Source of the DNA: Pseudobdellovibrionaceae bacterium | GTDB taxonomy: Bacteria; Bdellovibrionota; Bdellovibrionia; Bdellovibrionales; Bdellovibrionaceae | Reading direction: 5' to 3' | NCBI GenBank assembly: GCA_044359815.1 | Contig: JBIKLL010000061.1 | Coordinates: 1-16,682 of the forward strand | DNA: 16,682 nucleotides | The notes under the pieces: model-generated | Seen by the model: the letters and a program-made list of their open reading frames with translations, nothing else | Databases searched by the model: none | Told to the model about the DNA's origin: nothing | Part shown: piece by piece, positions 1-16,682 of the stretch | How positions within the stretch are numbered: the stretch's first letter is position 1 | How the letters are laid out: each line of letters begins with the position of its first letter | Position numbers and translations under genes: made by a program

Positions 1-20
1 AATTTAACCAAGCTCCTGAA

Positions 21-248
21 TAATAAATTATCATAAACCAAATTAAATGACACAACACCAGATATGCCATGCGCGCTCGCAAATGTATTCAAAAGGTATA
101 AAATAAAGAAATATTTGAAAATAGAAAATCTGGCTTCAGAAGACTAGCTCTAGATTGATTAATCGCTTTCAAATTTATGACACAATACGAGAGATGAGCT
201 TGCGGCCGTTAGCAAGTATTCACAAGATGTAAAATCATAGACATATTT
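21..248 (+). repeat. A/B motif repeat element, locus 1 (17-mer 21-37, motif B 53-80, motif A 183-213; 130-bp-period direct repeat)
   Basis: Motifs and 17-mer recur at 13826-14236. Downstream flanks 85-116 and 216-248 align with 5 mismatches and 1 indel. May continue left of the window. Confidence 0.85.
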
Positions 249-314
249 TTTTAAAATTTATTTTTTTGTTTTTGAACTTATCTTTGGGCGGTGGAGTTCA
301 GATTCAGGTGTAAA

Positions 315-1148
315 TCAGCTGGCGCGGCGTTGGAATATTTTGCTGAGGCTTCCGTCCAAGAACTCGTTGATGTATTCGGAAACTTTCGGTCCGTTTTCTA
401 AGGTCATGATATGACCGTAGCCCTTTAGGTTCACCACATAATCACAACTGAACCATTCGGCAAAAACCTCGTGGGAAAAATTGCGAAACAAGGGATCTTT
501 AACGTCGTAAATCAGCATAGCCGGATGAATCCACTGATCCATGCGATCTCTCCAATAGGACCAATTTTCATTGCGGCAAATCCAACTGAATCTATGGGTG
601 ATGTGGGTCAAAAAATCAAGCTTACGCCCCTTAAGGTTGTAGGAACGGTCTTTGTAATGTTCACGTTCTGCTCTGAATATATGGGTGGCTGTTTTAAAAA
701 AATGTTTTCCAATCACTGTCATAAACAGCAATCGCATAATGAATGCAGGTATAGGAAATGCCAAAACCATTTTGACAATACCCCAGTTAAAAAACTCGAT
801 AGGTTTAGGAGGCATTGGATTTATAAAAATCACTTTTTCTACCATTTCGGGATATCGCAGCGATAATCCCCAAACGATGGCTGCGCCATAACTGAGTCCA
901 CAAAAATGAAATTTTTGACCTCTCCAGTTTTCACGTAAAAAATCAGCCAATTGATCTATCTGCTTTGAAAATGAAATCGCTTCTTTGCCCATAAACAAAT
1001 GGGTCATGTTAGGTACGATGACATTAAAATTTGTATTTAGCAGTGGGACAACTGTATCCCAATGATGAACACTTCCCCCGTATCCGTGGATCAAGATAAT
1101 TTTTTTTCCGGAACCTGACTGTGTAAAAGTGATTTTGCTTTTGTTCAT
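315..1148 (-). CDS. alpha/beta fold hydrolase
   Basis: HGYGG oxyanion motif, GLSYG nucleophile elbow (G-x-S-x-G), candidate acid residue in DPLF and His in GHIM. Start overlaps the upstream stop (ATGA). Confidence 0.9.
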   Translation of the reverse strand: MNKSKITFTQSGSGKKIILIHGYGGSVHHWDTVVPLLNTNFNVIVPNMTHLFMGKEAISFSKQIDQLADFLRENWRGQKFHFCGLSYGAAIVWGLSLRYPEMVEKVIFINPMPPKPIEFFNWGIVKMVLAFPIPAFIMRLLFMTVIGKHFFKTATHIFRAEREHYKDRSYNLKGRKLDFLTHITHRFSWICRNENWSYWRDRMDQWIHPAMLIYDVKDPLFRNFSHEVFAEWFSCDYVVNLKGYGHIMTLENGPKVSEYINEFLDGSLSKIFQRRAS

Positions 1149-1636
1149 TGCTTGGCCACGAATTCCAGTTTTTCTTTTTTGCCGGCGGCACTGACACAGG
1201 CCATCAGATCGATTTCGTTATTTGACGACACAAAAGTCGCCCCACACATAAATACAGGATAAAGCTGCTCGCGGGTCGCGCCTTCTTTGTAAAATTCATT
1301 TATCAGCACAATGATTCTGTCAAAATTTCCGTAGCGCTTAAGATTGTACAGACATTTGCCGCCAGATTTTTTTACCTTGGATGAGATTTCACAATCAGTC
1401 AGATAATCCAAATACATCGAAATCAAGCCGCGCTCTTGGGCACCTGTTGAATTTTTAAAATGACTGTCAAAGGTATCATGGATCGACCAAGGATTATTAC
1501 GATCAACATTAAAACTAAACAGCATTTCAAATCGATTTTTAATGTCTTCGTTGACATTAAATTTCTTGGCAGGCCCATCCTGCGCCATCGATTGAAAACT
1601 AATGACTGAAAAGAATAAAATTATAAGTGCTTTCAT
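1145..1636 (-). CDS. secreted hypothetical protein
   Basis: 163-aa ORF with Sec-type signal peptide (MKALIILFFSVISFQSMA/Q) and four Cys. Translationally coupled to the hydrolase. Confidence 0.75.
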   Translation of the reverse strand: MKALIILFFSVISFQSMAQDGPAKKFNVNEDIKNRFEMLFSFNVDRNNPWSIHDTFDSHFKNSTGAQERGLISMYLDYLTDCEISSKVKKSGGKCLYNLKRYGNFDRIIVLINEFYKEGATREQLYPVFMCGATFVSSNNEIDLMACVSAAGKKEKLEFVAKQ

Positions 1637-1646
1637 CCACTTAAAC

Positions 1647-1673
1647 TCATCGGAATCAGCAATTCAGTATTTA
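1647..1673 (-). promoter_or_regulatory. putative sigma-28 (FliA) promoter
   Basis: Minus strand reads TAAA-N15-TCCGATGA against the consensus TAAA-N15-GCCGATAA, ending 10 nt before the ATG at 1636. Confidence 0.55.
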
Positions 1674-2087
1674 AGGCTTGTTTTGCCCTTTATCACCAGA
1701 TTCCAGGACCAAAGTCCCTTGTTTTGCGACTGAAACAGTGGGTGCTGAGCCCTTAGGAGCTTTGTAGCCTCTGATTTTTTTGTTAGCTGAATCATTTCGA
1801 TCCTGATGTTCGCTAATATCAATAACCATGGGACCAAAACAGCGAAGCTGACAGGACAGCCGTCTTTGATCGATGTAATAACTGGTACCAATCAAACTGA
1901 GCTCAGCCTTGGAAGGCGGTAAAACATTGTTTTCTCCCTCTACAATTTTAATCCGGCATTCCGCACAGCTGGGAACACCTTTGCAAAGCGATTTGATAAA
2001 AATCCCATTATCCATGCAATTTTGCAGCAGTGATTTGTTGGGATCCAGTTCTATTTCTTGATTTGTCGGCAAAAATTTAATTTTCAT
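1671..2087 (-). CDS. 2Fe-2S ferredoxin-domain protein with basic C-terminal extension
   Basis: [10 protein letters not shown] (C-x5-C-x2-C) and RLSCQ motifs. Confidence 0.9.
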
Positions 2088-3316
2088 TCTATCACCAATT
2101 TTGCAAATTTCTTTTTACCGGCTTTGATCAATATTTGGGCGCCGGGTTTTAAATCTAATTTTAGTTTTTCATCACTGACTTTTTGACCATCGATTTCGAC
2201 TGCATTTCCCTGAATCAGTCGCTTGGCCTCGCCATTGGAAGTGCTTAAACCCGCTTGAGTTAACAGCTGACAAACACCAACGCCAGATGCTGATTTTAAT
2301 TTCACCGTGGGGATTTCATCAGGAAGACCTTTTTGTACGAACACACGATTAAATTCTTCTTCGGCTTTTTGTGCAGCCGTTGAATCATGAAATCTGGCCA
2401 CCAGAGTTTTTGCTAATTGAACTTTGATTTCACGAGGATGTTTTTTGCCGGATTTCATATCGCTTTTCAGATTTTCAACCTGAGCTGATGTTAAATCTGT
2501 GAGCAATAAATAATATTTAAACATCAGCTCATCATTGATCCTCATGGTTTTGCCAAACATGTCCTTGGGACTATCAACGACTGAAATATAATTATCCATG
2601 CTTTTTGACATTTTGTGAACGCCATCAGTGCCCTCTAGCAACGGCACAGTGATCACTGCCTGCTGGTATTTAGAGCCATAGCTTTTTTGCAGCTCTCGCC
2701 CCACCAGCAAATTAAATTTTTGATCAGTACCACCTAGCTCAATGTCCGATTTTAAAAACACTGAATCGTAACCTTGCACCAAAGGGTACAAAAACTCATG
2801 CACACTTATGGGAGTGTTTGATTTAAATCTTTTGGTAAAATCATCTCTTTCCAGCATTCTGGCCACTGTGTACTGAGCCGCTAGCTTGATAAATTCGGCA
2901 GGTTTTAAAATATTTAACCAATGCGAATTATATACCACGTCTGTTTTATCTTTATCTAAAACTCGAAACACTTGCTCGGCATAGGTCTTTGCATTGGCCT
3001 GAATTTCTTCAGGACTCAATGGGGGCCTGGTTTCATTACGGCCGGTGGGATCACCAATAAGCGCCGTAAAGTCGCCGATGATAAACTGCACCCTATGACC
3101 AAAATTCTGAAACTGCCTGAGCTTATTGAAAACCACAGTGTGGCCTAAATGCAAATCGGACCTGGTAGGATCAGCGCCAAATTTTATCAGCAAAGGTTTT
3201 TTGTTTTTATAACTGACTTCAAGCTTCGCCAAAATCTCAGCGTCGCTAATAAAATCAACCGTCCCCGCTTTCAGGTGTTCCAGTTGTTCTTTTGGAGTCG
3301 CTTTGCTTAAATCCAT
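2084..3316 (-). CDS. tyrS: tyrosine--tRNA ligase
   Basis: HLGH (HIGH) and KMSKS motifs, GGTDQKFN, C-terminal S4-like domain. Confidence 0.98.
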
Positions 3317-4881
3317 TACCTGGCCATCTCGACACTTCTGGTTTCACGAATCACAGAAACTCGCACTGATCCCAAATGAGGCATTTCGCGTTCGATTTTT
3401 TTAACAATATCGCGATTTAAAATTGAAGTCTGTTCATCGGTGACTCGGCTGGCTTCAACCAACACCCTGACCTCTTTACCCGCTTGCACGGCATAAGTTC
3501 TGGCCACTCCATCAAAGCTGTTACCAATGCTTTCCAAATCCTGCAGACGATTAATGTAATTATCCATTCCCGGTCTGCGAGCTCCAGGCCTTGAATTTGA
3601 TAGCATATTTGCTGTCTGCACCAAATAGGCCACTGTTGAATTTGGATTTTCCTCGTTATGATGTGCACGCACAGCGTGGCAGACGGCTTCGTTTTCACCG
3701 TATTTTTTCAAAAATTCGGCGCCCACAATTGCGTGACTGCCCTCAACGGTGTGATCAACACCTTTGCCAATATCGTGCAACAATCCTGCCCTTTGTGCCA
3801 ACTTCACATTGGCACCCATTTCAGAAGCCATGATTCCAGCCAAATAAGCGACTTCTATACTGTGATTTAACAGATTCTGCGTGTGACTGTGTCTGTACCG
3901 TAGTGATCCCAGAATTTTAATAATTTCTGAATGCAGATTGGTCACACCCAAATCAACGGCAACCTTATCACCGTCTTCACGGATGGATTTATTCAGTTCA
4001 GTTCGCATTTTTTCAACGACTTCTTCGATGCGCGCAGGATGAACCCTGCCATCTTCCATAAGTTTTTCCAAAGTGCGTTTTGCCAGTTCACGGCGAACAG
4101 GATCAAAACCTGAAATAACCACGGCCTCGGGAGTGTCATCAACAATCAAATCCACTCCGCAAAGAGCTTCCAGGGTTCTGATATTACGGCCTTCTCGACC
4201 AATGATTTTGCCCTTCATTTCGTCACTAGGCAGTGACAGAACACTAACTGTTCTTTCAGAAGTGTAATCCCCTGCAAATCGGCACATGGCCACGGCTAAA
4301 ATTCTGCGAGCTTTTTTGTCAGCTTCGGCTTCCGCGGTTTTTTCAATTTCTTTGATTTTAGTTGCTGCCACTATTTTGGCGTCTTCTTGTAAAGCATCAA
4401 CCAATTCTCGTTTTGCTTCTTCGGGTGACATCCCTGCCACTCTGGATAGCTTCATGCTGAGCTCTTGATTTTCAGCTTCTGTTTTGCGTTCAAGCTCTCT
4501 GATTCGGTCTTCAGCTATTGAAATTTTGTCCTGTCTGGATTTGAGCTGCAGATTAAATCTGTCGTTTTCCTCAATGCGATTTTTATGAACATCATCCAGT
4601 TCCTTCAGTTTTCTATCAAACTGCTGTTCTTGGTTTTTCAGTTTTGATTTTTGTTTTTGAATTTCTTGTTCCGCATTTCTGCGAGCTCTGTTTTCAAAAT
4701 CTTTGGCTCGGTTTTTGGCGTCCCGGTCAATCTTTGCGGCCTCTGTGTTGGCTCTTTGAATGATTCTGTCGGCTTCAATCTTAGCAGATTTTTTCTTGGC
4801 ATCATCTTGAACTTTTTTGAAATAAAAAGTGATCGCTCCACCTAAAAATAAGCCCACTAAACTGGCAATCATGGCTTCCAT
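3316..4881 (-). CDS. rny: ribonuclease Y
   Basis: N-terminal TM helix, coiled coil, KH domain ([13 protein letters not shown]), HD domain (LLHDIGK), RPGAR and IRETR motifs. Confidence 0.96.
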
Positions 4882-4893
4882 TTAATTTTCCTT

Positions 4894-5391
4894 TCAGTTT
4901 CCAATCTCAATTACACATTTATCAGTCACAATAAAATTCATCTTCACGTCATGGCCTTCGTCAGGGATTTTGTCTGACAAAAATTCATGAAAACAAACGC
5001 CAATTCTTAGTGGCTTTTGCTTCGCGAAGTATTTGTCAAAATGCCCTTTGCCCCTGCCCAGCCTGAAACCCCTTTTGTCAAAAGACAATCCTGGTATCAT
5101 CAAAGCCTCGGGCCTAACCCCATTTCCCTGCTGATCAAAATAATTTATTTGATCACCAATAACCTGGGGGTAACTGAAAAAACCTTTACCAAAAACATTT
5201 TCGATAAAGATCAAATCAGGTTCATGTTTAAATAATTTGTTGATGATGGGTTTGAATGATCCCCAGCTCACATTGTGGCTTTTGATAAGTTCAGTTAAAT
5301 TCTGAATCATCAAAAAATATTGCGACACTTTTGGAATAAAACTTATTTCCGAAAAATATCTGCGAGCAGAGTCTTTAGTATCAAAAATCAT
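4894..5391 (-). CDS. 5-formyltetrahydrofolate cyclo-ligase family protein (YgfA/Fau-like)
   Basis: PGLSFDKRGFRLGRGKGHFDKY and HDVKMNFIVT motifs. Typical position between zapA and rny. Confidence 0.88.
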   Translation of the reverse strand: MIFDTKDSARRYFSEISFIPKVSQYFLMIQNLTELIKSHNVSWGSFKPIINKLFKHEPDLIFIENVFGKGFFSYPQVIGDQINYFDQQGNGVRPEALMIPGLSFDKRGFRLGRGKGHFDKYFAKQKPLRIGVCFHEFLSDKIPDEGHDVKMNFIVTDKCVIEIGN

Positions 5392-5412
5392 AACTACACC
5401 AAAATCAAAAAA

Positions 5413-5766
5413 CTATTTCTGACTTTTGATGTGCTCTAATTCACTGGAGATTTGGTGGGCCTTTTCCTCGATTTTAGCCAATTCTTTTGCGGCTTTTCTT
5501 TTAAGCAGAATCAACTCTTCGGCAATATTCAGTGCAGCCAGTACAGCTGCGCTTTGTAAAGAACCCTTTTTAGTCGCCTGCATCGCCTGATTGATTTTTT
5601 GATCAACGAAATCGACCAAATTTTGCACAGTAGCTTCATCATGAGAGGATTTTAATCTGTAAGGCAAACCTGCAATTGTAAATTCAAATGTCTGTTTGTC
5701 TTTAACACTGTGATTGGTTTCAATGCTGTCTTTATTTAATGGCTTGTTTTCCAAGGCGTCTAACAT
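5413..5766 (-). CDS. zapA: cell division protein ZapA
   Basis: FTIAGLPYRL ... VDFVDQKI ... AVLAALNIAEEL signature and C-terminal coiled coil. Confidence 0.92.
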   Translation of the reverse strand: MLDALENKPLNKDSIETNHSVKDKQTFEFTIAGLPYRLKSSHDEATVQNLVDFVDQKINQAMQATKKGSLQSAAVLAALNIAEELILLKRKAAKELAKIEEKAHQISSELEHIKSQK

Positions 5767-5873
5767 TTATGCTTTCCGTTCAGCTCACAGTCTGTAAGTT
5801 CTTGAAACTCATACAGAACAGCGAATCTCCAACTGTTAATTAGACCACATACAATTAAGTCTTGGTCGCCTTA

Positions 5874-5901
5874 AGTATACTCTGGAAGTGATTGATATCA
5901 A
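5874..5901 (-). promoter_or_regulatory. putative sigma-70 promoter of the zapA operon
   Basis: Minus strand TTGATA-N16-TATACT about 105 nt upstream of the zapA ATG. Confidence 0.5.
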
Positions 5902-5925
5902 AAGATTTATTGCAATTGCTTTGCG

Positions 5926-7089
5926 TTAATTCGACGACACACAGTTCATTAACTTTTCCAGATTAGTTCCTGTGGTGTTTTGCAAGGGTCCAAAGTGATT
6001 ATAGGACTTCCCAGCGGCAAAGTGCAAAGAAACACAGCGGTTGTTGGGGTCTTTCAATTTTCCTGAAACCAGATTTAGCGGCGCGGTGCTACTGGCAGAG
6101 CTTGTGTTTACCTGCACTGAAAAAGTCTGATGGATTTTGTCGATGCCGCAAAAAGCGTTAAAGGTCTGATAACCGCTACCAAATAGTTTAATCATGTCGC
6201 CCTGACTGCCATCCTGATTGACAGAACAGCTAGGGTTGATGCGGTTCCATTGTTTTAAACAGGCGTAAATGTTTCCGTTAGAATTGGGCGTGAATTGAAA
6301 CAGGCCAATGTTCAATCTGCTGACAGCGCTTTGGCTGGGATCTTCATAAAAAGCCACACCTGATGGTCTGGTGTAACCTGCTGGTTGGTATTTCTGAGCC
6401 ACACTGATGGATGAACTGCTGTCAGGATTTCCCAAAGACTCGGCCATCGAAAGGCACATAAAAAATTTGCTCCAATGTTTTACCAGTTTGATTTCAGAAT
6501 CTGTTTCGTTATTCAAAAATTGTGATCTGAGCAAATTATTTTGATTAACAAAGGCATTGATTTTACTAATTGTCGCCGTTGACGGAACGTATGAAGCTCC
6601 TCCAAGGGTTTTAGTCAGCGAGCTGACGCTGACTGGACACATAGGGTGCGACACTAATGATACAGGTTTTGCGACACTGGATGACGGCAACGAATAACTG
6701 CTGGCCACATAATCCAGCTGAGCCACTCGGGTTTCCAGATGACCATAGGCAAAATAAGCTATCCTGTCGGCAAAGCGATTTTGTCCCTGTAATTCAGGGA
6801 TGCATGAATCCTGTGGGACCAAACTGCTGGCTGATCGGGTTTTCGTCAGTTGATTTTGTTGGGGCACACGCTTGTCAACCACCAGGGCCACAGGCGATGC
6901 CACATCTAAAAACAAATCATACTGCATTTTAGGAACTGTTTGGTCAGGGGCCGGAGGTTCATCAATATTCATCCCTAATTCTGAACTTAAATCTACAGAT
7001 GAATTAATTTCGGGATCTGAACAACCCACTAATGTTGCCAACAGTGTAGACAGGTAAAAAATTCGAAACCAGTTTAGTCCAATAAGCAT
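5926..7089 (-). CDS. cysteine-rich lipoprotein with possible lysozyme-like/lytic transglycosylase domain
   Basis: Lipobox LVGC. MAESLG and NIGLFQF resemble SLT motifs I (ES) and II (GLMQ/GLFQ). The CDS is well supported; the function is inferred. Confidence 0.65.
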   Translation of the reverse strand: MLIGLNWFRIFYLSTLLATLVGCSDPEINSSVDLSSELGMNIDEPPAPDQTVPKMQYDLFLDVASPVALVVDKRVPQQNQLTKTRSASSLVPQDSCIPELQGQNRFADRIAYFAYGHLETRVAQLDYVASSYSLPSSSVAKPVSLVSHPMCPVSVSSLTKTLGGASYVPSTATISKINAFVNQNNLLRSQFLNNETDSEIKLVKHWSKFFMCLSMAESLGNPDSSSSISVAQKYQPAGYTRPSGVAFYEDPSQSAVSRLNIGLFQFTPNSNGNIYACLKQWNRINPSCSVNQDGSQGDMIKLFGSGYQTFNAFCGIDKIHQTFSVQVNTSSASSTAPLNLVSGKLKDPNNRCVSLHFAAGKSYNHFGPLQNTTGTNLEKLMNCVSSN

Positions 7090-7095
7090 ACCGGC

Positions 7096-7122
7096 TTATC
7101 GGCATTTGGTCCTGCTGATTAA
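7096..7122 (-). promoter_or_regulatory. putative sigma-28 (FliA) promoter, likely leaderless transcript
   Basis: Minus strand TTAA-N15-GCCGATAA (perfect -10), 6 nt before the ATG at 7089. Confidence 0.7.
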
Positions 7123-7255
7123 GGTTTGATGGTGACAAATTTTGTTTTTTTTAAGGGCTGATTTTAGTGACGAAATTTTTGACGGTACCATTGCTAAAAT
7201 TCAAAGATTCTGTCTTTCATTGTGACAGCTCACCGCACACCTTAGATTGTTCATT

Positions 7256-8266
7256 ATGTTGATAAAGTCTTCTCTTTTTATATCTGTATTAATGGCTATT
7301 GTTGTTGGCCATGCGGCGCCCTTTGTACCCTTCAGTGGCTCTTACAATCAGAGTTTACCCAATAAAGAACTGGTCATGAGTGCCACTCACCATTTAGCTA
7401 TTGAGGGAAGTTCTTGCACTGGGACCTTTATAAATAACGAAGGCTTTATTTTAACGGCTCAACACTGTTTAAATAAGTTGTTCTTAAACAGAGGGCTTAC
7501 TGAAAAAACAATTTTCTCAGATCAAATCGGCAGTTCCGAAGTTCATCGCATTCAACGTAACAAGCTGAATTCAGTAGAAGTTGAAATTGATTTCAGAAAC
7601 CTGACCCGCAACCAAAATTATGTGATCAAAAAATATAAAATCTTTGCCTTGGGTGCTTTTGGATGGATTCAGAATGTTTCCCAAATAACTACGGTCAACG
7701 TAAAAAATCTGGTTTCGCAAAGACTGAGTGGGCTTTCTAACGAAGGCGATTTTGTGATTCTGATGCCGTCCAATCCAGCTGAAAATATTGTGGGTCAATG
7801 GGCACAATCCAAAGACGTAGGAACAATTAATGTAAATTGTCTGAAAAATGACAACGTCTCAGGCGATACCGGATCGTTTATGTGGAATGTTAGTTTTCCT
7901 AAATTTCAACGCCAATCCCAGTCCAGCACTATGGACATGCAAATCTCTGAAGGGTATTTGAGGGATTCACTAGAGCAACTTGTAGGGGCTACCCAAGTGC
8001 CCTTTGAAAACATGGCCAGAAACCCCAAGCATATGATGTTAAGTGATGTGGATTTTGCCGGTGGCGCCAGTGGCTCTGTCATGATCAATGCCTTAGGCTA
8101 CATTGCAGGAATCAACGTAGCCAATGTCTTCAAGCGCACCGAATCCACTGAATTCAATCCTTTAGGAAGCACTTTGGGAATCAGGATTGAATTTATAATC
8201 CAGACTTTGCGAGAAATTTATGGCCAGGATGCTGTGTCCACAGCCTTCAATTGCCCTCAAGGGTGA
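7256..8266 (+). CDS. secreted trypsin-like (PA clan) serine protease
   Basis: Signal peptide; CTGTFI...LTAQHC (His), GDFVIL (Asp), GGASGS (Ser). ATG at 7256 preferred over TTG at 7247. Confidence 0.85.
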   Translation: MLIKSSLFISVLMAIVVGHAAPFVPFSGSYNQSLPNKELVMSATHHLAIEGSSCTGTFINNEGFILTAQHCLNKLFLNRGLTEKTIFSDQIGSSEVHRIQRNKLNSVEVEIDFRNLTRNQNYVIKKYKIFALGAFGWIQNVSQITTVNVKNLVSQRLSGLSNEGDFVILMPSNPAENIVGQWAQSKDVGTINVNCLKNDNVSGDTGSFMWNVSFPKFQRQSQSSTMDMQISEGYLRDSLEQLVGATQVPFENMARNPKHMMLSDVDFAGGASGSVMINALGYIAGINVANVFKRTESTEFNPLGSTLGIRIEFIIQTLREIYGQDAVSTAFNCPQG

Positions 8267-8413
8267 TCATTCATTGGCCAAGTCTGAAAATCCTTTGTGA
8301 CAATTTTTGTGACATCAGTTTTCCTAGTTTCAATTTAGAATTTGCAAGTATCAGTCACAAAAATTTTTAGTTATTATCACTATCGAAATATTTAACCGCT
8401 ATGGGTGGATTGC

Positions 8414-9085
8414 ATGAAAGATTCAGGATTATACAAAACAGTGAAATTTGTTTTTTTAATTTGCGCGTTAGCCGTTTTTGTTTATTCAACAATGGCTTTT
8501 GGCAATTTAGCTAGAGCTTCTGACGAAGTCTCAAGGGAATTCAACCCCTACAGAATGTGCAGTGTAAAGGTTCTGTGGCTGCCAACACAGAAAGTCTTGG
8601 TGAACACTGTCATTGAAACCAACGAATTCGTAAAAGAAGATCCTTATTTAAGAATCATCGAAAATCCCACCACAGGATTAAAACTGCGCTCTGTTTCATT
8701 GTACGCAGTCCAAGGTCCATTGTTGAAAACCTTGTTTCCTCACGACGCCCCTAAAATGATGACCGTGATAACTTTGGACAGATTTAAAGGTGAAATCAAG
8801 AGTGTTTTTGATCCATCAAACAATGTCAAAAAAGTTTCTTCAGCCAAAAAACCTAAACAGAAAGCGGTTGTAGCTATTATTATCCGCGAGGATGATAAAA
8901 AAGTTTACCGCGATCAGGACAATTACAGAATCATTAGTACTTGCCGAGCAGTAGTTCCCAAAGTTAAAAAGTACGCTCCTAGAACGCCTCGGGAGTTCGT
9001 TGTAGAGTCTGATGAAAAACATCAAATCGAAACTGAATTAACCAATGATGGATTCGATATACACAGAGCTAGCGAAGGTTTTTAG
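8414..9085 (+). CDS. secreted or membrane-anchored hypothetical protein
   Basis: Long ORF with hydrophobic N-terminal segment (FVFLICALAVFVYSTMAFG). ATG 8414 is the likely start, GTG 8405 an alternative. 3' end overlaps ftsY. Confidence 0.7.
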   Translation: MKDSGLYKTVKFVFLICALAVFVYSTMAFGNLARASDEVSREFNPYRMCSVKVLWLPTQKVLVNTVIETNEFVKEDPYLRIIENPTTGLKLRSVSLYAVQGPLLKTLFPHDAPKMMTVITLDRFKGEIKSVFDPSNNVKKVSSAKKPKQKAVVAIIIREDDKKVYRDQDNYRIISTCRAVVPKVKKYAPRTPREFVVESDEKHQIETELTNDGFDIHRASEGF

Positions 9086-10123
9086 GTCTTCAACACGTTC
9101 GCCAATCCCTATCATTTTAATAGGGAGCTTCAGTTCATTGGCTAATGCCACGGCCACTCCGCCTTTGGAGCTGCCGTCCATTTTGGTTAAAATAATCCCA
9201 CTAAGTCCAATTGCTTGATGAAATTCCTTAGCTTGAATTAAAGCATTCTGACCCGAGTTTGCGTCCAATACGATCCAGGTTTCATGAGGGGAATCGCTAA
9301 TCACCTTACCCATCACCCGCTTAACCTTTTTAAGCTCTTCCATTAAATTAGACTGAGTGTGCAGCCTTCCTGCCGTATCCAGCATAACCACATCAAAACC
9401 CTGAGCCTTGGCTTTTGAAACAGCATCAAAGGCTATGGCACTGGGATCACTGACATTGGGTGGAAAAAATATTTCGACCTGAGCACGTTCAGTCCAAGTT
9501 TTTAATTGGTTCCCAGCAGCCGCCCTGAAGGTATCGCCTGCCGCTACTAAAACTTTTTTTCCCTGCTTTGCAAACAGTGCAGCTAGCTTTCCTATGCTGG
9601 TGGTTTTACCCGCACCGTTCACGCCAACAATCATTATCACCGTGGGTTTTATGTCGCCAAAATCTATGGACACTTTTGAATCTAAAGGGGCAAAGATTTT
9701 TTCAAATTCAGATCGAAAGGCATTTTTGACCAATTCAAAATCTTTTTTTTCAGATCTGGACAACTGATCCTTAACTGCAGCCATCAGTCTTTCGACAGTG
9801 GAAGGACCAATATCACTGGTGTATAAAATCTCTTCTATTTCATCAAAATGCTGGCCTGAACTGCCAGTGAATAGCTCGTTGATTCTGCCAAACAAATGTT
9901 TACTGGTTGATTGCAGGGCTGACTTGAAAGCCGCCTGATTGGAAGTGGTCTCAGTAACTGTAGGCGCCGATTGTGCGGTGTTGGTTTCTGCTGAATTAAT
10001 ATCCGGCAAGGGATTGGCAACGGTGTTTGAAACCCTTGGTTTTTTGCGAAGCAGATAATACCAGGCCGCAATCAGGATCACAGGTCCCGTCACTGCACCC
10101 ACTAATATAAATGGATCAATCAT
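9038..10123 (-). CDS. ftsY: signal recognition particle receptor FtsY
   Basis: GVNGAGKTT, DTFRAAA, DTAGR and TKMD GTPase motifs. Coupled to smc. Confidence 0.97.
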   Translation of the reverse strand: MIDPFILVGAVTGPVILIAAWYYLLRKKPRVSNTVANPLPDINSAETNTAQSAPTVTETTSNQAAFKSALQSTSKHLFGRINELFTGSSGQHFDEIEEILYTSDIGPSTVERLMAAVKDQLSRSEKKDFELVKNAFRSEFEKIFAPLDSKVSIDFGDIKPTVIMIVGVNGAGKTTSIGKLAALFAKQGKKVLVAAGDTFRAAAGNQLKTWTERAQVEIFFPPNVSDPSAIAFDAVSKAKAQGFDVVMLDTAGRLHTQSNLMEELKKVKRVMGKVISDSPHETWIVLDANSGQNALIQAKEFHQAIGLSGIILTKMDGSSKGGVAVALANELKLPIKMIGIGERVEDLKTFASSVYIESIIG

Positions 10124-13100
10124 AGGTCTTGGAGATTTACACTAACCATGGTCGAAACGCCACGTTCTTGCATTGTGACACCGTACAGTTTTCCGGCGAC
10201 TTCCATAGTATGTTTATTATGGGTCACAACAATGATCTGAGATCTTTTGGCCATTTCACGGACTAAGTCATTAAATCTGTACACATTGGCGTCGTCCAAT
10301 GGCGCGTCAACCTCATCCAGTAAGCAATACGGAGATGGCTTAACCAGAAAGATCGAAAACACTAAAGACACTGCAGTTAAAGCTTTTTCACCACCCGACA
10401 GCAATGAAACATTTTGCATTTTTTTGCCCGGAGGTTTTGCGATGATCTCGATACCCATTTCTTGTTTTTCAGGATCCTCGATCAATTGCAATCGGGCTTC
10501 GCCCCCACCAAACAAGACTGGGAAAACCTTGGTGAATCTGTCGTTCACCAAATCAAAAGTTTCTGTAAATCTGCGCGAACAGATTTTGTTGATCCTATCG
10601 ATAACACGGTTTAACTGAGCTTTGGATTCATTCAGATCAGTTTGTTGCTGAGTTAAAAACTCATAACGCTTTTGAGTGTCTTCAAACTCATTGATAGAAG
10701 ACAAATTAACCTCACCCATTCGTCCCAGTTTTTCCTTGAGTTCTTTTAATTGAACTTCGGCAGTTTCCATACTGTGGGGTTTATCCAAATGCTGTTCAAA
10801 GCAAAGTGATAAGTCCAACATATACCGTTCGCGGATCTGATCCAGCAGATTGGTTTCTTTCATTTTAGCTTGTTCAAATTTCAGCTGAGATTCGTTCATC
10901 GTCATCATACGCTGATTGCGCTCTGTTTGCAGTTTCTGCAGCTGGCTGTCCTGGTCCACAACCTGAGCATGCAAAATCTCGTAAGTGTTTTTGCATTCAG
11001 CTAAGCGTTTTTTAGTTTCTTCAACAGACTGAATGGATTTTTCAAATTCTACTTTGCGCTCTTCAAGCTTGTACTGACTGTCTGTTAGGACAATAGAGTA
11101 CTTTTGGGATTCTTCAGAATATTTCGACAACTGACCGTTCAGTTCATCCAGTGAGCGGTTCAATAAATCAAGCTGCCCCTGCATGCCCTGAAGCTCTTGT
11201 TCCTTCTGGGCCAATTGCACACGAAGCTCGTTGGTTTCAGTTTTAGATGATTCAAAAGATAATTTTAAATTTTCCAGATCTTGCTCTAGCGTGACTGTGC
11301 TTTCAGCCAAGGAATTTTTGCGCGCTAAAATCGTCACATGTTCTGACAACAAGGTTTCTTTTTTGGCCGTCAGATTTGCCAGCTGATCCGAAATTTTTTG
11401 CACTTCCAACTGATTGCGGTGCAAAGCATATTCTGCCTGAGAAACTTCGGTTTCGGCCCGTTCTAAATCTTTTCTAAATTCTGTGACTTTGATTTCTTGT
11501 TCTGATTTTCGCTTTTGTGCGCCTTCAAAATCATGGGTGACGTTTGCCAATTGTTCCTCAAGCTTTTTCAGTGCCTGAGAAGCCAAGGCGTGTTTACCAG
11601 CCCATTCTTCTTTTTTCTGCGACAATTCCTTGATTTCGCGACGCCGTTTCAGCAATCCACTTTCAACGTCCTTGGCTGAACCACCTGTCAATATTCCATC
11701 GGCAGTCAGGGCATCGCCTTCTTTTGTAACAAAAGTCCATCCAGGGTATTCAGATCTCAGCCTCAAGGCTGTTCTGATTCCGTCGACCACGGCAACTCGG
11801 CTTAAAACCTTGTCCACCGAAGGTTTAAAATTTTCAGGAGCACTGACCACACTGTGAAGCATTTCAAGCACGCCTTCACCTGATGGGGCATTACCAATTG
11901 CAGGTTCTGAACTGCCATCAATCAAAAATGAGGTCCTACCTGCACTGTTTTGTTTCAGATAATCCACAGCCTGCAAAGTTGCTTCTTGATCCTGCGAAAA
12001 CAGCATTTGCAATCGCACGCCCAAGGCCGCTTCCATTGCTAATTCGTATTCGCTGGGGACCTCAACGACCTCAGCCACTGGGCTGAAATACACTGAACCA
12101 TCAGCTGAAATTTCGGTCTGTTTGGTTTTCTGCCAAAGCATGATGTTTTTCACGCCTTCCTCGAAACCCTCAAAATTTTGCTGCAGATTTTCCAGTCCAT
12201 ACAACCGGCTGGCTGTTTCATTTAGAGCGTCTTTGTATTCGTCGACCTGATTGCGTTTTTCGGAAATTTGTTCGTTTAAAACTTTTTTATTGGCCTCAAA
12301 CGAATCAACGTCACTGGAAAGATCAATTTGCAATTGTCTTTCTTTGTCGTATTCGGTGCCAATTTTTCGACGTCTGGTTTCAAATTCTTCTTTTTTGCTG
12401 GCAAGTTCTGTCGATACTTCTTGCTGCTTCGCCAACTGAGCTGTGGTGTCTTCGATTTGGACTTCCAGCCCCTGAATCTTGGTAGAAACCGTAGCTTCCG
12501 TCTGACCAACGGCGATAAATTCTCGCCTTTGTTGAGTCAGCTCTTGATCCATTTCTTGAATCCTGGCTTCACCCTCGTCAAAAATTGATTTCTTGGTTTC
12601 ATAGGAATTTTGAACCTGATTTTTAACTGTTAAAACATCGCTGTATTCTGTGTTTAACTTTTGGATGTCTTTTTCTAAAATTTCTTTTCGCGCTTGCTGT
12701 TCCGAAATCATCGAGCCCGTCATTTGCTCACTTCTGCGAGCCTGCTCGATTTCCATTTTTAGCTCTTGGATTTCGTATTCTTTTTTCTGTGAGCTGCTTT
12801 GAGCTTCAAAATTCTGAGTTTGCAAAACCTCGATCTGTTTTTCCTGTTCAGTGGCTTGCAACCTCAGTGTCTCGAGCTCTGCGCCAATTTCTGCTAATCG
12901 GGCTTCACTGTCGATTTCAAAAGACTGAGCTTCCTGAAATATTTTTTGAGCTTCTTCAGCGGCTTTTTTCAGATCAACAAACTGATTGCTCGATAACCAC
13001 AAATCTAAATCTTCAATCTGGCGTTTGACCTCTCGGTATCTTTCGGCTTTTTGAGCCTGTCTTTGCAAATAATCAATCTGCCTTTTAAGTTCGCCAACAA

Positions 13101-13689
13101 TGTCTTGAAGCCTTAGCAAGTTGCCTTCAGTGGTTTGCAATTTGCGCTGAGATTCGCGCTTACGCATTTTAAATTTTGTGATTCCAGCGGCTTCCTCGAT
13201 CAAATGTTTTCGATCCTCGGGTTTTGCCGTAATAATCCGGCCAATCATCCCCTGCTGAATAATTGAAAACCCTTTTGCGCCAGCACCGGTATCCATAAAG
13301 ATTTCTTGGATGTCTTTCAGTCTGGCAGGTTCTTTGTTGATATAATATTCAGATTCGCCATCACGGTGTAATTTACGAGTCACCATGATTTCAGAGTGTT
13401 TTAAATACTGAGACGGAAAAGGCCCCCCGTCGTTTTCTAGGGTCAACGACACTTCAGCCATTCCCATTGGGGCATAGCCTTCAGCACCGGCAAAGATCAC
13501 ATCAGTCATAGTAGAAGCTCTGAGATCCTTGGCAGACATGTCCCCCATGACCCACACCAATGCATCAACTATGTTTGATTTTCCACAACCATTTGGTCCA
13601 ACTATACCTGTGATACCAGCATCAAACTGAATGACGGTACGATCTTTAAATGATTTAAATCCGACGAGCTCGATTTTTTTAATTCTCAA
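10120..13689 (-). CDS. smc: chromosome segregation protein SMC
   Basis: Walker A GPNGCGKSN, long coiled coils, hinge, LSGGE signature, LDEVDA Walker B. TTG start with AGGAG RBS. Confidence 0.98.
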   Translation of the reverse strand: MRIKKIELVGFKSFKDRTVIQFDAGITGIVGPNGCGKSNIVDALVWVMGDMSAKDLRASTMTDVIFAGAEGYAPMGMAEVSLTLENDGGPFPSQYLKHSEIMVTRKLHRDGESEYYINKEPARLKDIQEIFMDTGAGAKGFSIIQQGMIGRIITAKPEDRKHLIEEAAGITKFKMRKRESQRKLQTTEGNLLRLQDIVGELKRQIDYLQRQAQKAERYREVKRQIEDLDLWLSSNQFVDLKKAAEEAQKIFQEAQSFEIDSEARLAEIGAELETLRLQATEQEKQIEVLQTQNFEAQSSSQKKEYEIQELKMEIEQARRSEQMTGSMISEQQARKEILEKDIQKLNTEYSDVLTVKNQVQNSYETKKSIFDEGEARIQEMDQELTQQRREFIAVGQTEATVSTKIQGLEVQIEDTTAQLAKQQEVSTELASKKEEFETRRRKIGTEYDKERQLQIDLSSDVDSFEANKKVLNEQISEKRNQVDEYKDALNETASRLYGLENLQQNFEGFEEGVKNIMLWQKTKQTEISADGSVYFSPVAEVVEVPSEYELAMEAALGVRLQMLFSQDQEATLQAVDYLKQNSAGRTSFLIDGSSEPAIGNAPSGEGVLEMLHSVVSAPENFKPSVDKVLSRVAVVDGIRTALRLRSEYPGWTFVTKEGDALTADGILTGGSAKDVESGLLKRRREIKELSQKKEEWAGKHALASQALKKLEEQLANVTHDFEGAQKRKSEQEIKVTEFRKDLERAETEVSQAEYALHRNQLEVQKISDQLANLTAKKETLLSEHVTILARKNSLAESTVTLEQDLENLKLSFESSKTETNELRVQLAQKEQELQGMQGQLDLLNRSLDELNGQLSKYSEESQKYSIVLTDSQYKLEERKVEFEKSIQSVEETKKRLAECKNTYEILHAQVVDQDSQLQKLQTERNQRMMTMNESQLKFEQAKMKETNLLDQIRERYMLDLSLCFEQHLDKPHSMETAEVQLKELKEKLGRMGEVNLSSINEFEDTQKRYEFLTQQQTDLNESKAQLNRVIDRINKICSRRFTETFDLVNDRFTKVFPVLFGGGEARLQLIEDPEKQEMGIEIIAKPPGKKMQNVSLLSGGEKALTAVSLVFSIFLVKPSPYCLLDEVDAPLDDANVYRFNDLVREMAKRSQIIVVTHNKHTMEVAGKLYGVTMQERGVSTMVSVNLQDL

Positions 13690-13825
13690 GGAAAATCTCC
13701 TTAGATTTTCAGGTTGGACAAAGGCCTAGATAGTTTTTACTGTGTCTTGTCTTAAGCCCAGCAGTCAACTGACTTATTGTAAGATGATTTCATTTTAAGC
13801 AGCCCCTTGCTGCGCCGCATTTCGC

Positions 13826-14236
13826 CCCTAATGGCCGCGGTCTACCTCGTTTTTAACAAAATCAGCATCCCTTATTTTATTTTTTTTGGCCACAGACAGT
13901 GTACCAACCTCTGGCATCGAATGATTTAAAACAAATTAGATTTTTATATTTTGAGGGCACGTCGAGCGAGCGCGCGGTGCATATCTCGTGATGCGTAAAT
14001 GCAAAGATAATTTTTTTTACTATTTTTAGACACTCGCTAACGGCCGCGGGCTCATCTCTCGTATTGATTCATTTGGATTAATCAATTTTACGATTAATAA
14101 ATTATCATAAAACTGATTAATCCAAATGACTCAACACCAGATATGCCCCGCGCGCTCGCTGCATGTGTCTAAAAACAGTAAAAACAAATTACCTTTGCAT
14201 TTATGCAATACGAGAGATGAGACCGCGGAAGGTAGG
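13826..14236. repeat. A/B motif repeat element, locus 2, containing a ~255-bp imperfect palindrome (13973-14227)
   Basis: Minus-strand copies: degenerate A 13826-13853, B 13966-13993, A 14036-14066. Plus-strand copies: B 14132-14159, A 14206-14236. Inner stem 14069-14094/14104-14129 is 24/26 complementary. Confidence 0.9.
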
Positions 14237-14240
14237 GAAA

Positions 14241-15548
14241 TTAGTAAAGCTTTACTTCGACCCGACGGTTCTGAGACCGCCCCTGGTAATTGCCATTATC
14301 AGCAATAGGACGAAGCTCACCGTAACCGATGGCTTCCACAGTGACCTTGCCTAGCTTCACATTTTGTCTGATATGGTTTCTGATTGCTTGAGCTCTAAGC
14401 TCACTCAGTTTTTGATTGTACTGATTGGATCCCACTGAATCTGTGTGTCCCTCGATCACGATTTTTTTAACGTCTTTACGACTGCTTAAAATATCTGCCA
14501 AAATTAAATCCAAACGATCCAGGGTATCCTTGGAATTACCCGCCAGCTCAGCAGTTCCAGTGATAAAATTTAAACCTGGTAATTCAATTTCTTCAAACTG
14601 TGGGGCTTGCGCAGGTTTCACCTTTACGAGCTCTGATTGTTTTCGCCACAGAGGACCAAATGTATAGTTGAGGCCCGCATAAATTCTCCAGTCAGGTGAA
14701 GAATTGCCGTGCTCAAGCTCTGTGCCCCCACCTGCGTGAACGGCTAAATTGGTATTAATGTCGTGCTTTACACCGGCGATCAGTTCACGGCTGGATAAAT
14801 CCCTGTCAGTTTGATTGGTACCCGTGCGGGTAGCCGCCGTGCTGGTGAAAATCTCGAAAATCAATTTCGTATCTATATCTGTTAACAAATAACTGGCAGC
14901 CACTGACGCCAAATAAGAATCACCCACAGGGTCAAGGTTTAAACCTGCAATGGGGGCTCCAGGTCTGCGCCATCTGTATCCAGCGTTAGCGCCTAATTGC
15001 CAATTGTTAAAGGTCGTATCATAGACAAATTCCAAGCTGGTTGAGGGACCCGCGCCCGATCCCGCAAAGGGGTTGTTTTGAATTTGGTTAAAATTTTGAG
15101 TTAGGACTGCTGCCCAACCGCCCTTGGAATCACCATAAAATTTATATTTAGTGTTCAATCTGATTTCAGTTAAGCCGTCTGAATAAATTCCTAAATTGTT
15201 TGTATTGTCAGCCTTGCTGCGAATCACATAGGGAAAGCTGATCCCCACATCCCAATTTTTAGCCAAACCCAAACCGAAATTCAGATCAGAGGAAGTCATC
15301 GAATCATTAAATTCTGTTCTGGATTGTGAAACCGAACCTGTAGGGGCCGGAAAATACGGCAATGTGTTCACCGCATGATTTATAAAAATACCTAAATTAA
15401 AAACACCGGGTTCTAGGGTTTCTGAGGATTGAACTGTGACAAAGTCTATACCATTTGTAGTGGGATTAAAATTCTGAGCATCACTGCCGATGACGTTGGC
15501 CTGCGCCTGAGAAATCATCAAAAAAATTAAAACCAAAACTTTGCGCAT
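14241..15548 (-). CDS. OmpA family outer membrane protein
   Basis: Signal peptide, beta-barrel-like N-terminal region, C-terminal peptidoglycan-binding motif EGHTD...NQKLSELRA...NRRVE. Confidence 0.92.
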   Translation of the reverse strand: MRKVLVLIFLMISQAQANVIGSDAQNFNPTTNGIDFVTVQSSETLEPGVFNLGIFINHAVNTLPYFPAPTGSVSQSRTEFNDSMTSSDLNFGLGLAKNWDVGISFPYVIRSKADNTNNLGIYSDGLTEIRLNTKYKFYGDSKGGWAAVLTQNFNQIQNNPFAGSGAGPSTSLEFVYDTTFNNWQLGANAGYRWRRPGAPIAGLNLDPVGDSYLASVAASYLLTDIDTKLIFEIFTSTAATRTGTNQTDRDLSSRELIAGVKHDINTNLAVHAGGGTELEHGNSSPDWRIYAGLNYTFGPLWRKQSELVKVKPAQAPQFEEIELPGLNFITGTAELAGNSKDTLDRLDLILADILSSRKDVKKIVIEGHTDSVGSNQYNQKLSELRAQAIRNHIRQNVKLGKVTVEAIGYGELRPIADNGNYQGRSQNRRVEVKLY

Positions 15549-15568
15549 AATTAATTACAGTCCTATTT

Positions 15569-16387
15569 TTACGGGCAAACAACAGTATTTTGCAGTTTCA
15601 AAATAAAATTTTGCAAATCACCTTTGTTGTTAGCAATCAAATGCACAGTTTCTTTGTCGCTGTCTTCACTGGACCCCACGCCGCTGGTTTTTTTGTCAAT
15701 ACGATTGCCACTGATTCCGGTCACATGAATTTCAATATCATCACCAGACAACGGCCCGATCACGGCTCCGTCAGAATTATCATCGTGGCTTAAAGTCACA
15801 TTAAACAGATTTCCTTTTTGCTCAAAAATATCCAGTTCGTGTTTTGGATCGTCTTTGACCACAAAATGAGCCTGAGTTCCCGCATTTTTAAGCTCAACAC
15901 TCAGTTTTAGATTTTGCCAGTCTCGGTCTGGCGAATTGTCCATGTCGTGGTGGAAAAACAAATACAATCCGTCGCTGGCTTTCACTAAATAGAAAAACAA
16001 AGCGTCGTTTTGAGCTTTGGGTCCAACATGATTATGGGTTGAAGTGCTGTAATAATCATAAGTCTGCACCGCTGTGTCGCGGGATTGATAGACGCCCACA
16101 TTGGCTTTAAAAAACATCTTGTTTTCAGCATTGGGTTGATACAGCTTCCAATCGGTCTGCTGTCTGCATTGCGATGAATCCCTACCTGGTGCTGATTCAT
16201 CTGGCTTGGGGGAACTGCCTTCAGTCGCAGGAGTGACCTGGGCTTCGGCTTTTTCGCCCATATTGAATTCGGAAGCCTTACAACCAATCATGGCTGAAGA
16301 CATCAAACAAAGAGCCAATACAGACAGGGTCATCGAACCGGTTAATCCTGTTTGTTTTTTATCCATCAATTGGAATCCTGATTTCAT
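15569..16387 (-). CDS. hypothetical lipoprotein
   Basis: AGGAG RBS, hydrophobic segment ending in the lipobox-like MIGC, low-complexity linker, beta-rich acidic domain. 20 nt upstream of the OmpA gene, likely co-transcribed. Confidence 0.75.
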   Translation of the reverse strand: MKSGFQLMDKKQTGLTGSMTLSVLALCLMSSAMIGCKASEFNMGEKAEAQVTPATEGSSPKPDESAPGRDSSQCRQQTDWKLYQPNAENKMFFKANVGVYQSRDTAVQTYDYYSTSTHNHVGPKAQNDALFFYLVKASDGLYLFFHHDMDNSPDRDWQNLKLSVELKNAGTQAHFVVKDDPKHELDIFEQKGNLFNVTLSHDDNSDGAVIGPLSGDDIEIHVTGISGNRIDKKTSGVGSSEDSDKETVHLIANNKGDLQNFILKLQNTVVCP

Positions 16388-16581
16388 AAAATTCTCCTAA
16401 CCCTACAATTCACTGCAATTTAAGCGCTAAAATGGAAACTAAAATCCCATCCCTGGGATCTGGTTTTAATGCTTTTAATGGTGATGTAAAAAAAATCGAC
16501 AAGCAAGTAATACAATTTGCCAGTCGCATTTTGGCAGCTGGGTCATGCTGAAAGGTCACGCTGAAAACAGGAGGTGACTTT

Positions 16582-16680
16582 TTAAGGTTTAATTTTTTTG
16601 CAAGAAGCTGCGCCCTTTTTTACCAATAATCCATAGGGCATCCACGGCTTAACATCCAAAGTGCATTTCAGTCCGCTATC
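16582..16680 (-). CDS. 3' end of an unidentified gene entering from the window edge (partial)
   Basis: Open frame DSGLKCTLDVKPWMPYGLLVKKGAASCKKIKP-stop from the edge. Too short to assign. Confidence 0.4.
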   Translation of the reverse strand, partial: DSGLKCTLDVKPWMPYGLLVKKGAASCKKIKP

Positions 16681-16682
16681 GC

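Follow-up and report, generated by a model that had tools for sequence, protein, structure and literature searches.

The closest described system to the repeat reported here comprises the repetitive extragenic palindromic (REP) sequences of Escherichia coli, their assembly into bacterial interspersed mosaic elements (BIMEs) and the transposase TnpA-REP, also known as the REP-associated tyrosine transposase (RAYT) (PMC3333891, PMC2817692). BIMEs join REP units of type y with z1 or z2 through S or L linkers and vary between strains, and binding by TnpA-REP needs a mismatch in the stem (PMC3333891), whilst REPINs, the REP doublets of Pseudomonas that form hairpins, show compensatory changes in their spacers (PMC3116915). 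The stretch analysed here, hereafter the window, comprises 16,682 nt of a Pseudobdellovibrionaceae bacterium (assembly GCA_044359815.1, contig JBIKLL010000061.1, positions 1 to 16,682) and is the entire contig C63 of that genome. A sequence-only reading of the window had picked out two related motifs, A and B, each with a central 3-nt slot, and had proposed them as paired asymmetric sites, without being able to match them to REP/BIME. We find that A and B are the conserved, non-identical facing arms of a gene-less long-hairpin DNA repeat, whose architecture is of the very BIME/REPIN kind that had been set aside. The repeat constitutes a lineage-specific mosaic family of long hairpins, best filed with the REP-BIME, REPIN and foldback miniature inverted-repeat transposable element (MITE) kind, and no account of such repeats in Bdellovibrio-like bacteria was found among the papers that literature searches listed.

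Both motifs occur where they had been placed, and shuffled sequence yielded no match to either. Motif A lies at 183-213(+) and 14036-14066(-) with 0 mismatches (200 shuffles: mean 0.00, maximum 0), whilst motif B is matched perfectly at 53-80(+) and 14132-14159(+) and with 2 mismatches at 13966-13993(-) (shuffles 0.00). A further A copy at 14206-14236(+) is 80% identical to the A at 183-213, its 3' GC box having diverged. The degenerate A proposed at 13826-13853(-) retains little of the motif beyond its GC box and was not picked up by the motif scan. Since the window spans its contig from end to end, the first locus (1 to ~300) represents a separate element that the assembly has truncated to its right half. 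The second was recovered by a repeat finder as a single 255-bp imperfect palindrome at 13973-14227, centred at ~14099, with arms at 13973-14094 and 14104-14227; its layout is B'-linker-A'-hairpin-B-linker-A, and in the folded form each A stands opposite a B. The window carries one S-type and one L-type element, types that are distinguished below by motif spacing, with the following parts:

1..300, L-type composite of which the contig start leaves the right half, with a motif spacing of 130 and the layout of the complete L-type copies C6, C20 and C106
4-46, right arm of the central hairpin within the L-type half-element (part of 1..300)
53..80 (+), motif B with slot CAT, 0 mismatches, 0 expected by chance
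81-182, L linker/tail within the L-type half-element (part of 1..300)
183..213 (+), motif A with slot CTT, 0 mismatches, 0 expected by chance
Beyond motif A up to the stop of a hydrolase open reading frame (ORF) at 315, outer tail of the L-type half-element (element 1 to ~300)
13826..13853 (-), degenerate third A-like unit of the left arm, reduced to the ACGAG stretch and GACCGCGGCC.TTAG box, read directly from the sequence
13966..13993 (-), outer motif B with slot ACC, opposite the outer A at 14206-14236, 2 mismatches, inverted repeat
13994..14035, left S linker, which pairs with 14160-14205, inverted repeats
14036..14066 (-), inner motif A with slot CCC, opposite the inner B at 14132-14159, 0 mismatches, inverted repeat
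14067..14131, central AT-rich hairpin H, arms 14053-14094 and 14104-14145, 86% complementary, alignment columns 207-219 paired with 252-263
14132..14159 (+), inner motif B with slot CCC, by motif match
14160..14205, right S linker, inverted repeats
14206..14236 (+), outer motif A with slot ACC and diverged GC box, the usual outer tail being absent, abutting the stop of an OmpA-family ORF

Motif scanning and classification of the assembly to which the window belongs (2.95 Mb in 125 contigs, 91% complete, with breaks at repeats) yielded 261 full motifs, 133 A and 128 B, in 95 clusters. What had been described as dispersal at two intergenic loci is, under the genome scan that the sequence-only reading had itself proposed as a check, a family of 95 loci. 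A blastn search of the same genome with a 281-base core returned 106 loci, including 38 full-length ones at 76-95% identity; many of the loci are at contig ends. Motifs lie within 300 bp of 37 of the 250 contig ends, and it is because of the repeat that the assembly is broken into 125 contigs. Part or more of the window is contained in 24 sequencing runs, all but one labelled lake water, and at least half of it in four; no RNA run is among those listed. Across four lake-water metagenomes, the summed depth of the repeat is ~13 to 130x that of its flanks; metagenome contigs from four lake-water runs end at 14003 and 14192, and among the four runs compared one single contig shows a 53-nt skip inside H.

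Complete elements make up 46 of the 95 clusters, 33 of them four-motif elements (B' A' B A, or this order in reverse complement) and 13 two-motif elements (A' B or B' A), and in all 46 A stands opposite B. The strict alternation of A and B noticed in the window holds there and in all but three of the 95 clusters (C22:2401, C34:14944 and C38:13181), which fall outside the complete set. An arm consists of one or two ~74-nt units, B-linker-A or A-linker-B, and the arms flank the variable AT-rich hairpin; canonical units number at most two per arm, the left arm in the window having one degenerate third in addition. Units are direct within an arm, and outward from the centre the arms read B-s1-A and A-s2-B, so that, as read from the alignment, the two arms are the same alternating array in different phase, placed head to head. 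By motif spacing, composites are either S-type (73/74 nt, 29 copies) or L-type (128-139 nt), each with its own conserved, asymmetric linkers; spacers that had been taken as locus-specific are thus two linker classes. Whole palindromes measure 204-599 bp. Outside the motifs, AT-rich tails that form subfamilies end in a terminal box, GCAGRCAAGTGGGCCA, which many copies have at either end. Conservation is greatest in the interior of the element with the A/B cores, not at the termini. A and B proved to be related and asymmetric, as had been suggested, with their differences retained across many loci, and none of the 261 listed motifs has GTAG or CTAC next to it.

The central slot, previously regarded as variable, occupies a few main states and is a subfamily marker that matches between facing motifs. 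Genome-wide, A carries CTT in 71 cases, CCC in 55, ACC in one and CAT in one (five unread), and B carries CCC in 51, CAT in 46, ACC in two and CTA in one (one unread), with an 18-nt mini-hairpin instead in 27. Facing slots agree, with CCC opposite CCC in 32 pairs and CTT opposite CAT or the long insert in 43. At the tail-side junction, A-AA faces B-AA in 37 pairs and A-GG faces B-TGG in five, with no mixed pairs and four more that are unread or of another form; within the hairpin, this junction change is AA:TT to GG:CC.

Folded as single-stranded DNA, a 436-nt copy forms one hairpin of -152.6 kcal/mol (z -25.2), a value matched by none of 100 shuffles. The central hairpin and the tails differ considerably among copies, while the arms within one copy match; in H, the sequence differs between copies with changes matched on both arms, many pairs being altered on both sides. 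Among 28 aligned S-type composites, 53 of the 132 predicted pairs still pair after two-sided changes, and all 53 compensated pairs fall in the tails and H, the A/B cores and S linkers hardly varying. Together, this covariation and the matching of slots and junctions indicate that the long hairpin with A against B is the relevant structure.

The likeness to REP/BIME is considerable: a unit always has a partner of the other, related type (y and z1 or z2 there, A and B here), linkers form a short and a long class (S and L there; 73/74 and 128-139 nt here), the mosaic of combinations at a given locus differs from strain to strain, elements are extragenic and lie at gene ends, the stem retains a mismatch and the genome holds a Y1 HUH gene. 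The E. coli REP, however, is a 30-40-nt imperfect palindrome with a 5' GTAG, whereas A and B do not self-fold and are without such a foot, and neighbouring BIME units are inverted, whereas here inversion affects the arm as a whole and its units are direct. The hairpin here is moreover 200-600 bp long, and the RAYT-like gene of this genome is flanked by a different REP. Assignment to REP/BIME in the strict sense was rejected, the paired types, set linkers and mosaic extragenic arrangement being present and the unit palindrome and tetranucleotide foot absent. With REPINs, the family shares two conserved inverted regions around a free but hairpin-forming spacer, common compensatory changes and copy numbers of tens to hundreds. 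REPINs are vertically persistent, and the element here is likewise retained at matching loci in a related lineage. REPIN arms are near-identical copies of one REP, in contrast to the heterotypic A and B nested two deep here, and the present elements are several times longer and lack a flanked single-copy RAYT. A REPIN-RAYT system proper was rejected too: the inverted doublet hairpin with a compensating spacer is there, and a RAYT flanked by the same repeats is not.

The Correia elements of Neisseria and the ERIC elements of enterobacteria are small, non-coding and AT-rich, have terminal inverted sequences, fold into one hairpin, lie in or beside transcribed gene ends and show size variants produced by internal insertions. 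The element here is also small, non-coding and AT-rich, with terminal inverted sequences, a single hairpin, a position at gene ends and size variants; it differs in that no target duplication was seen, no parent insertion sequence (IS) was found and the interior is best conserved. A MITE of the DDE type fits poorly: terminal inverted repeats are present, whilst a target duplication and an autonomous partner were not found in this 91% complete assembly. Elements of the IS200/IS605 family carry their own small hairpin at each end, in direct order, and their enzymes use single-stranded DNA with imperfect hairpins as substrate, without producing a target duplication. The genome does contain eight intact Y1 genes of that type, but no motif self-folds, the element is a global palindrome and the Y1 genes are not bounded by A/B; a gene-less IS200/IS605 derivative was therefore rejected, its units not folding alone and a global palindrome taking the place of direct subterminal hairpins. 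In integron attC sites, the two opposed arms of a 57-141-nt hairpin bear the R''/R' core sites (RYYYAAC ... GTTRRRY). Here A ends in GTTAGC(A/G), with C at the third R, the facing B ends in GCGCGCTCGC without AAC, and the elements are dispersed rather than in cassette arrays. CRISPR arrays, in which one direct repeat recurs many times between unique spacers, do not fit units numbering at most two canonical ones per arm, two unit types, inverted arms and conserved linkers. Both attC and CRISPR, to which the earlier reading could not match the motifs either, are thus rejected on architecture.

Gene context was taken from a crude ORF map, on which 42 complete elements have ORFs on both sides. Convergent gaps hold 28 of these 42, against 389 of 2338 in the background (17%), and divergent gaps one of 42, against 380 of 2338; the 13 in tandem gaps mostly hug the 3' end of the upstream gene. 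Palindrome ends lie near adjacent stop codons, typically at about -37 to +60 nt, and the intergenic location attributed to the motifs is borne out by complete elements sitting after stop codons. Orientation is unbiased, both in tandem contexts (7 versus 6) and overall (22 versus 24). Where it is best kept, the tail has an A-run ahead of the long stem and a T-run behind it, AAAAAATATTTC...GAAATATTTTTT. A simple terminator scan found no site in either a typical element or the window copy; the window copy has no promoter-like site and the typical copy only weak ones (6 versus 3.0 expected). Translations read by eye show ordinary genes, without nuclease or transposase, both between neighbouring elements and on the small element-bounded contigs C115, C97, C102, C72 and C66. 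Since no protein gene lies beside the motifs, any partner must work in trans. In the window, a tRNA/tmRNA scan found none, and the element at the second locus lies between two genes:

14241..15548 (-), OmpA-family gene (PF00691, E 5.4e-15), its 3' end abutted by the element
10120..13689 (-), SMC gene (SMC_N, SMC_hinge), its start ~280 nt from the element

Beyond this genome, the element was not found in 40 relatives of other genera, where the sole match was a 22-nt AT-rich chance match in G011. Searches of the phage and plasmid collections gave no element match, and the motif A pattern had 0 loci in the genome contig collection, a scan that may not have included the window's own genome. In a sister lineage, known from one metagenome assembly, elements are present on eight short contigs with flanks 87-96% identical, all eight at loci also occupied in the window's genome; the scan of relatives that had been suggested thus drew a blank in the 40 related genera and succeeded in the sister lineage. 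At the window locus, the empty-site comparison found the OmpA-family protein only 37-48% identical in relatives, with no ORF of SMC length (1189 aa) beside it.

Four sister pairs were aligned, and remodelling in place is directly visible in them. The outer tail is nearly unchanged wherever both members have one. One pair shows an end-to-end inversion of the core together with loss of the inner module; in another H has been exchanged for a different, fully complementary H that is found at other loci; a third has an S-type interior where the window's genome has an L-type one; and the fourth differs only in the form of B (mini-hairpin). The core is accordingly flipped, deleted or swapped in three of the four. 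Within the genome, seven of the eight possible combinations of three two-state modules are present among the 29 S-type composites, which indicates that modules reassort between copies.

Long palindromes are numerous in this genome, and the A/B family is one of several kinds. A local search found 174 in 2.95 Mb, of which 73 carry A/B, 58 have the same arms and terminal boxes with another, GC-rich apical core and 25 belong to a canonical REP family, the cluster linked to the RAYT-like gene. Two relatives, sampled over their first 400 kb, gave 0 and 2 long palindromes, whereas 419 kb of the window's genome contain 21. None of the 25 genomes of the order (G000-G015 and G025-G033) scored above the cut-off of the SbcD model TIGR00619, versus 8 of 14 controls; SbcC was not searched. 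An apparent lack of SbcCD in the order could allow long palindromes to survive and would make them tolerable, an effect that would not be specific to this genome. The core of the second hairpin family, of which 46 oriented copies were collected, reads CACAGCTC...CTCTGCTCGGGC-NNN-GCCCCCGCC...GGCTCCGCAGAGG, without an Rfam match; example copies are C101:4328-4517, C109:15393-15584 and C67:11911-12087. A further family of four copies (C10:1074, C26:9835, C33:133554 and C113:5778) has an 85-nt conserved core with A-like and B'-like GC boxes, which forms the tip of a perfect 40-75 bp stem that differs in each copy.

Building on the anatomy, covariation, position and in-place remodelling observed above, we think it somewhat probable that the family is a modular foldback repeat that has spread as selfish DNA by way of a single-stranded hairpin handled in trans, and that it is tolerated at gene 3' ends. 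The family would spread through a single-stranded hairpin intermediate, in which a trans-acting enzyme would recognize the constant set of mismatches between A and B; recognition of imperfect hairpins is known from Y1 HUH transposases. Recombination between copies would then reshuffle the modules, the hairpins would be tolerated, and perhaps be useful, as structures at gene 3' ends, and the apparent absence of SbcCD from the order would let palindromes of this length survive. This mode of spread is inferred, with a Y1 enzyme as the putative trans-acting partner. A more specific form of this proposal is that the A/B heteroduplex with its constant mismatches and bulges, rather than a self-folding REP, is read by one of the amplified Y1 HUH proteins, which would drive spread into gene ends as well as flipping, tip replacement and module swaps; this would amount to a new REPIN-RAYT-like design, favoured by the seeming lack of SbcCD in the order, and we consider it unlikely.

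Nine Y1_Tnp matches were obtained in the genome, one RAYT-like gene and eight IS200-type copies. The RAYT-like Y1 gene encodes 211 aa (C8:9501-10136(-), PF01797, 33.5 bits). The eight copies of 206 aa are 86-92% identical in protein sequence:

C23:201-821, C48:48177-48797, C56:2969-3616 and C47:11964-12584, IS200/IS605-type Y1 copies, first four
C49:93331-93951, C100:633-1253, C125:2378-2998 and C8:23373-24056, IS200/IS605-type Y1 copies, other four

A profile of these eight sequences matched ISDra2 TnpA (2xm3) at E 7e-4, with the HUH motif and catalytic Tyr aligned; a single 206-aa protein had no match against the PDB, and only the profile reached ISDra2 TnpA. Conservation among the copies is limited to the ORF and ~95 nt upstream, and seven of the eight have a differing microsatellite or tandem array 100-400 bp upstream, for example (CTATCTAA)n, (GATTCCC)n or (GATT)n. 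On contig C56, at 2330-2640, three tandem, non-palindromic, degenerate B-like units with a tail and a terminal box lie ~350 bp upstream of the Y1 gene, the sole physical proximity of the repeat superfamily to a Y1 gene. The models for DDE_Tnp_1, IS110 and TnpB had no match in the genome, and no transposase ORF adjoins the solo terminal boxes. With the models tried, the only DDE-type transposase is the sole rve gene, which belongs to an IS3-type element at a contig end (C40:1-1100, frameshifted orfA/orfB, rve 65.6 bits) whose ends are unrelated to the repeat. As other transposase types are scarce, a Y1 enzyme is the leading candidate by elimination. The trans-acting HUH/RAYT-like partner suggested from the window agrees with the lack of an adjacent protein gene and the presence of Y1 HUH genes in the genome, whereas the link between the repeat and Y1 is at present only putative.

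Several observations count against this reading of the family. A and B do not fold alone: five units with flanks, folded as DNA, reached -1.9 to -4.5 kcal/mol (z -0.66 to +1.51), with equally good folds in 54 to 189 of 200 shuffles, which makes the motifs unlike REPs or the end hairpins of IS200/IS605. On either side of the RAYT-like gene stands its own REP, GAAAAGAGACCGTACGACTTTTTCTGTCTAC, which ends in GTCTAC and is unrelated to A/B, and canonical A/B motifs occur within 600 bp of 0 of the eight IS200-type genes; co-occurrence with such genes, proposed earlier as a check, was consequently not found. The 206-aa family is multi-copy and present in 24 of the 40 relatives, all of them element-free, and G029, the one such relative sampled, has 17 Y1 matches yet 0 long palindromes in its first 400 kb. 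The Y1 enzyme is the leading candidate partner by elimination and analogy only, and because the assembly is 91% complete and broken at repeats, the partner gene may be missing from it. The terminal boxes shared between families resemble the inverted ends of a DDE-type MITE. No mobility step, empty site or new insertion was found, all eight sister copies being at co-occupied loci, and at orthologous loci the core is conserved better than the flanking coding DNA, a pattern that could reflect host function rather than selfish spread. The REP linked to the RAYT-like gene also occurs in inverted doublets elsewhere in the genome, with further copies as follows:

C20:24396-24531, C106:26478-26635, C106:36491-36530, C28:21447-21485 and C32:10812-10849, other copies of the RAYT-linked REP

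A host role at gene 3' ends is a live alternative or addition to selfish spread. Roles of this kind have been proposed for REP/BIME, and host-kept 3'-end structures would here act as two-way terminators, stabilizers of message ends or binding sites of the nucleoid or topoisomerase type, with the mismatches read by a host protein. Abutment on stop codons and the enrichment in convergent gaps (28 of 42 versus 17%) fit this explanation, as do the retention of eight of eight loci in a lineage with 87-96% identical flanks and the greater conservation of the core modules than of neighbouring coding DNA. The A-run and T-run of the tail around a long stem, in a symmetric element without orientation bias, would also suit a two-way structure, but the terminator scan found nothing in the typical element or the window copy, the stem beside the T-run is AT-rich and weak and the window copy is entirely without tails. 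Moreover, ~95 near-identical cores need a spreading mechanism anyway, and the element was not found in the 40 related genera. We consider host retention fairly unlikely.

An ordinary MITE, in which the terminal boxes would be the inverted ends for a DDE transposase encoded elsewhere or lost and A/B mere passengers, is suggested by the ~25-nt terminal box common to the A/B family and the second family with another core, and by the small size, AT-rich non-coding character and tail subfamilies of the elements. Yet no target duplication was apparent, by reading and without a statistic, at the ends of the 46 complete elements or at box-bearing ends, and the two ends are consistently unlike, ...GGGCCAG(C/T)T against ...GGGCCATCTA. 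The transposase survey offers such an element no partner: solo boxes have no transposase ORF beside them, the models for DDE_Tnp_1 and IS110 went unmatched, and the single rve gene sits in an IS3-type element whose ends are unrelated. The A/B cores are the most conserved part, hence not passengers; this origin appears decidedly unlikely. Least probable of all, in our judgement very improbable, are structured RNA genes or the dual-repeat RNA array raised from the window, transcribed and processed to motif-delimited RNAs. The very strong hairpin fold and the many covarying pairs would suit such RNAs, and for RNA there may be a different fold, predicted by RNAalifold, that pairs the inner A' with the outer A with two G-U pairs at the slot; the common junction variant of A, GCAAGT to GCGGGT, keeps its local stem only via G-U pairs. 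However, the slot and junction covariation fits a symmetric A-against-B DNA hairpin, equal on both strands, and the A/B mismatches are mostly not G-U compatible. Orientation relative to flanking transcription is balanced (7 versus 6, and 22 versus 24 overall), and promoter-like sites are absent from the window copy and weak in the typical one. The Rfam 15 matches, which come from generic long-hairpin microRNA-precursor models and reflect the long hairpin shape, all lie far below gathering scores, the best in the window being mir-9 (44.5 bits versus 58.6) and those across eight element loci numbering 18.

Should the Y1 reading prove untrue, the family would be ordinary selfish or structural DNA; if a Y1 enzyme does read the A-against-B heteroduplex, the substrate range of HUH transposases would be wider. 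The family adds a well-resolved, high-copy member to the little-known repeat content of Bdellovibrio-like predators and offers a test case for REP/BIME/REPIN-type DNA with respect to what keeps two arm types paired. It is equally a test case for how very long palindromes persist and evolve, with orthologous cores flipped, swapped and shortened while the outer arms are kept.

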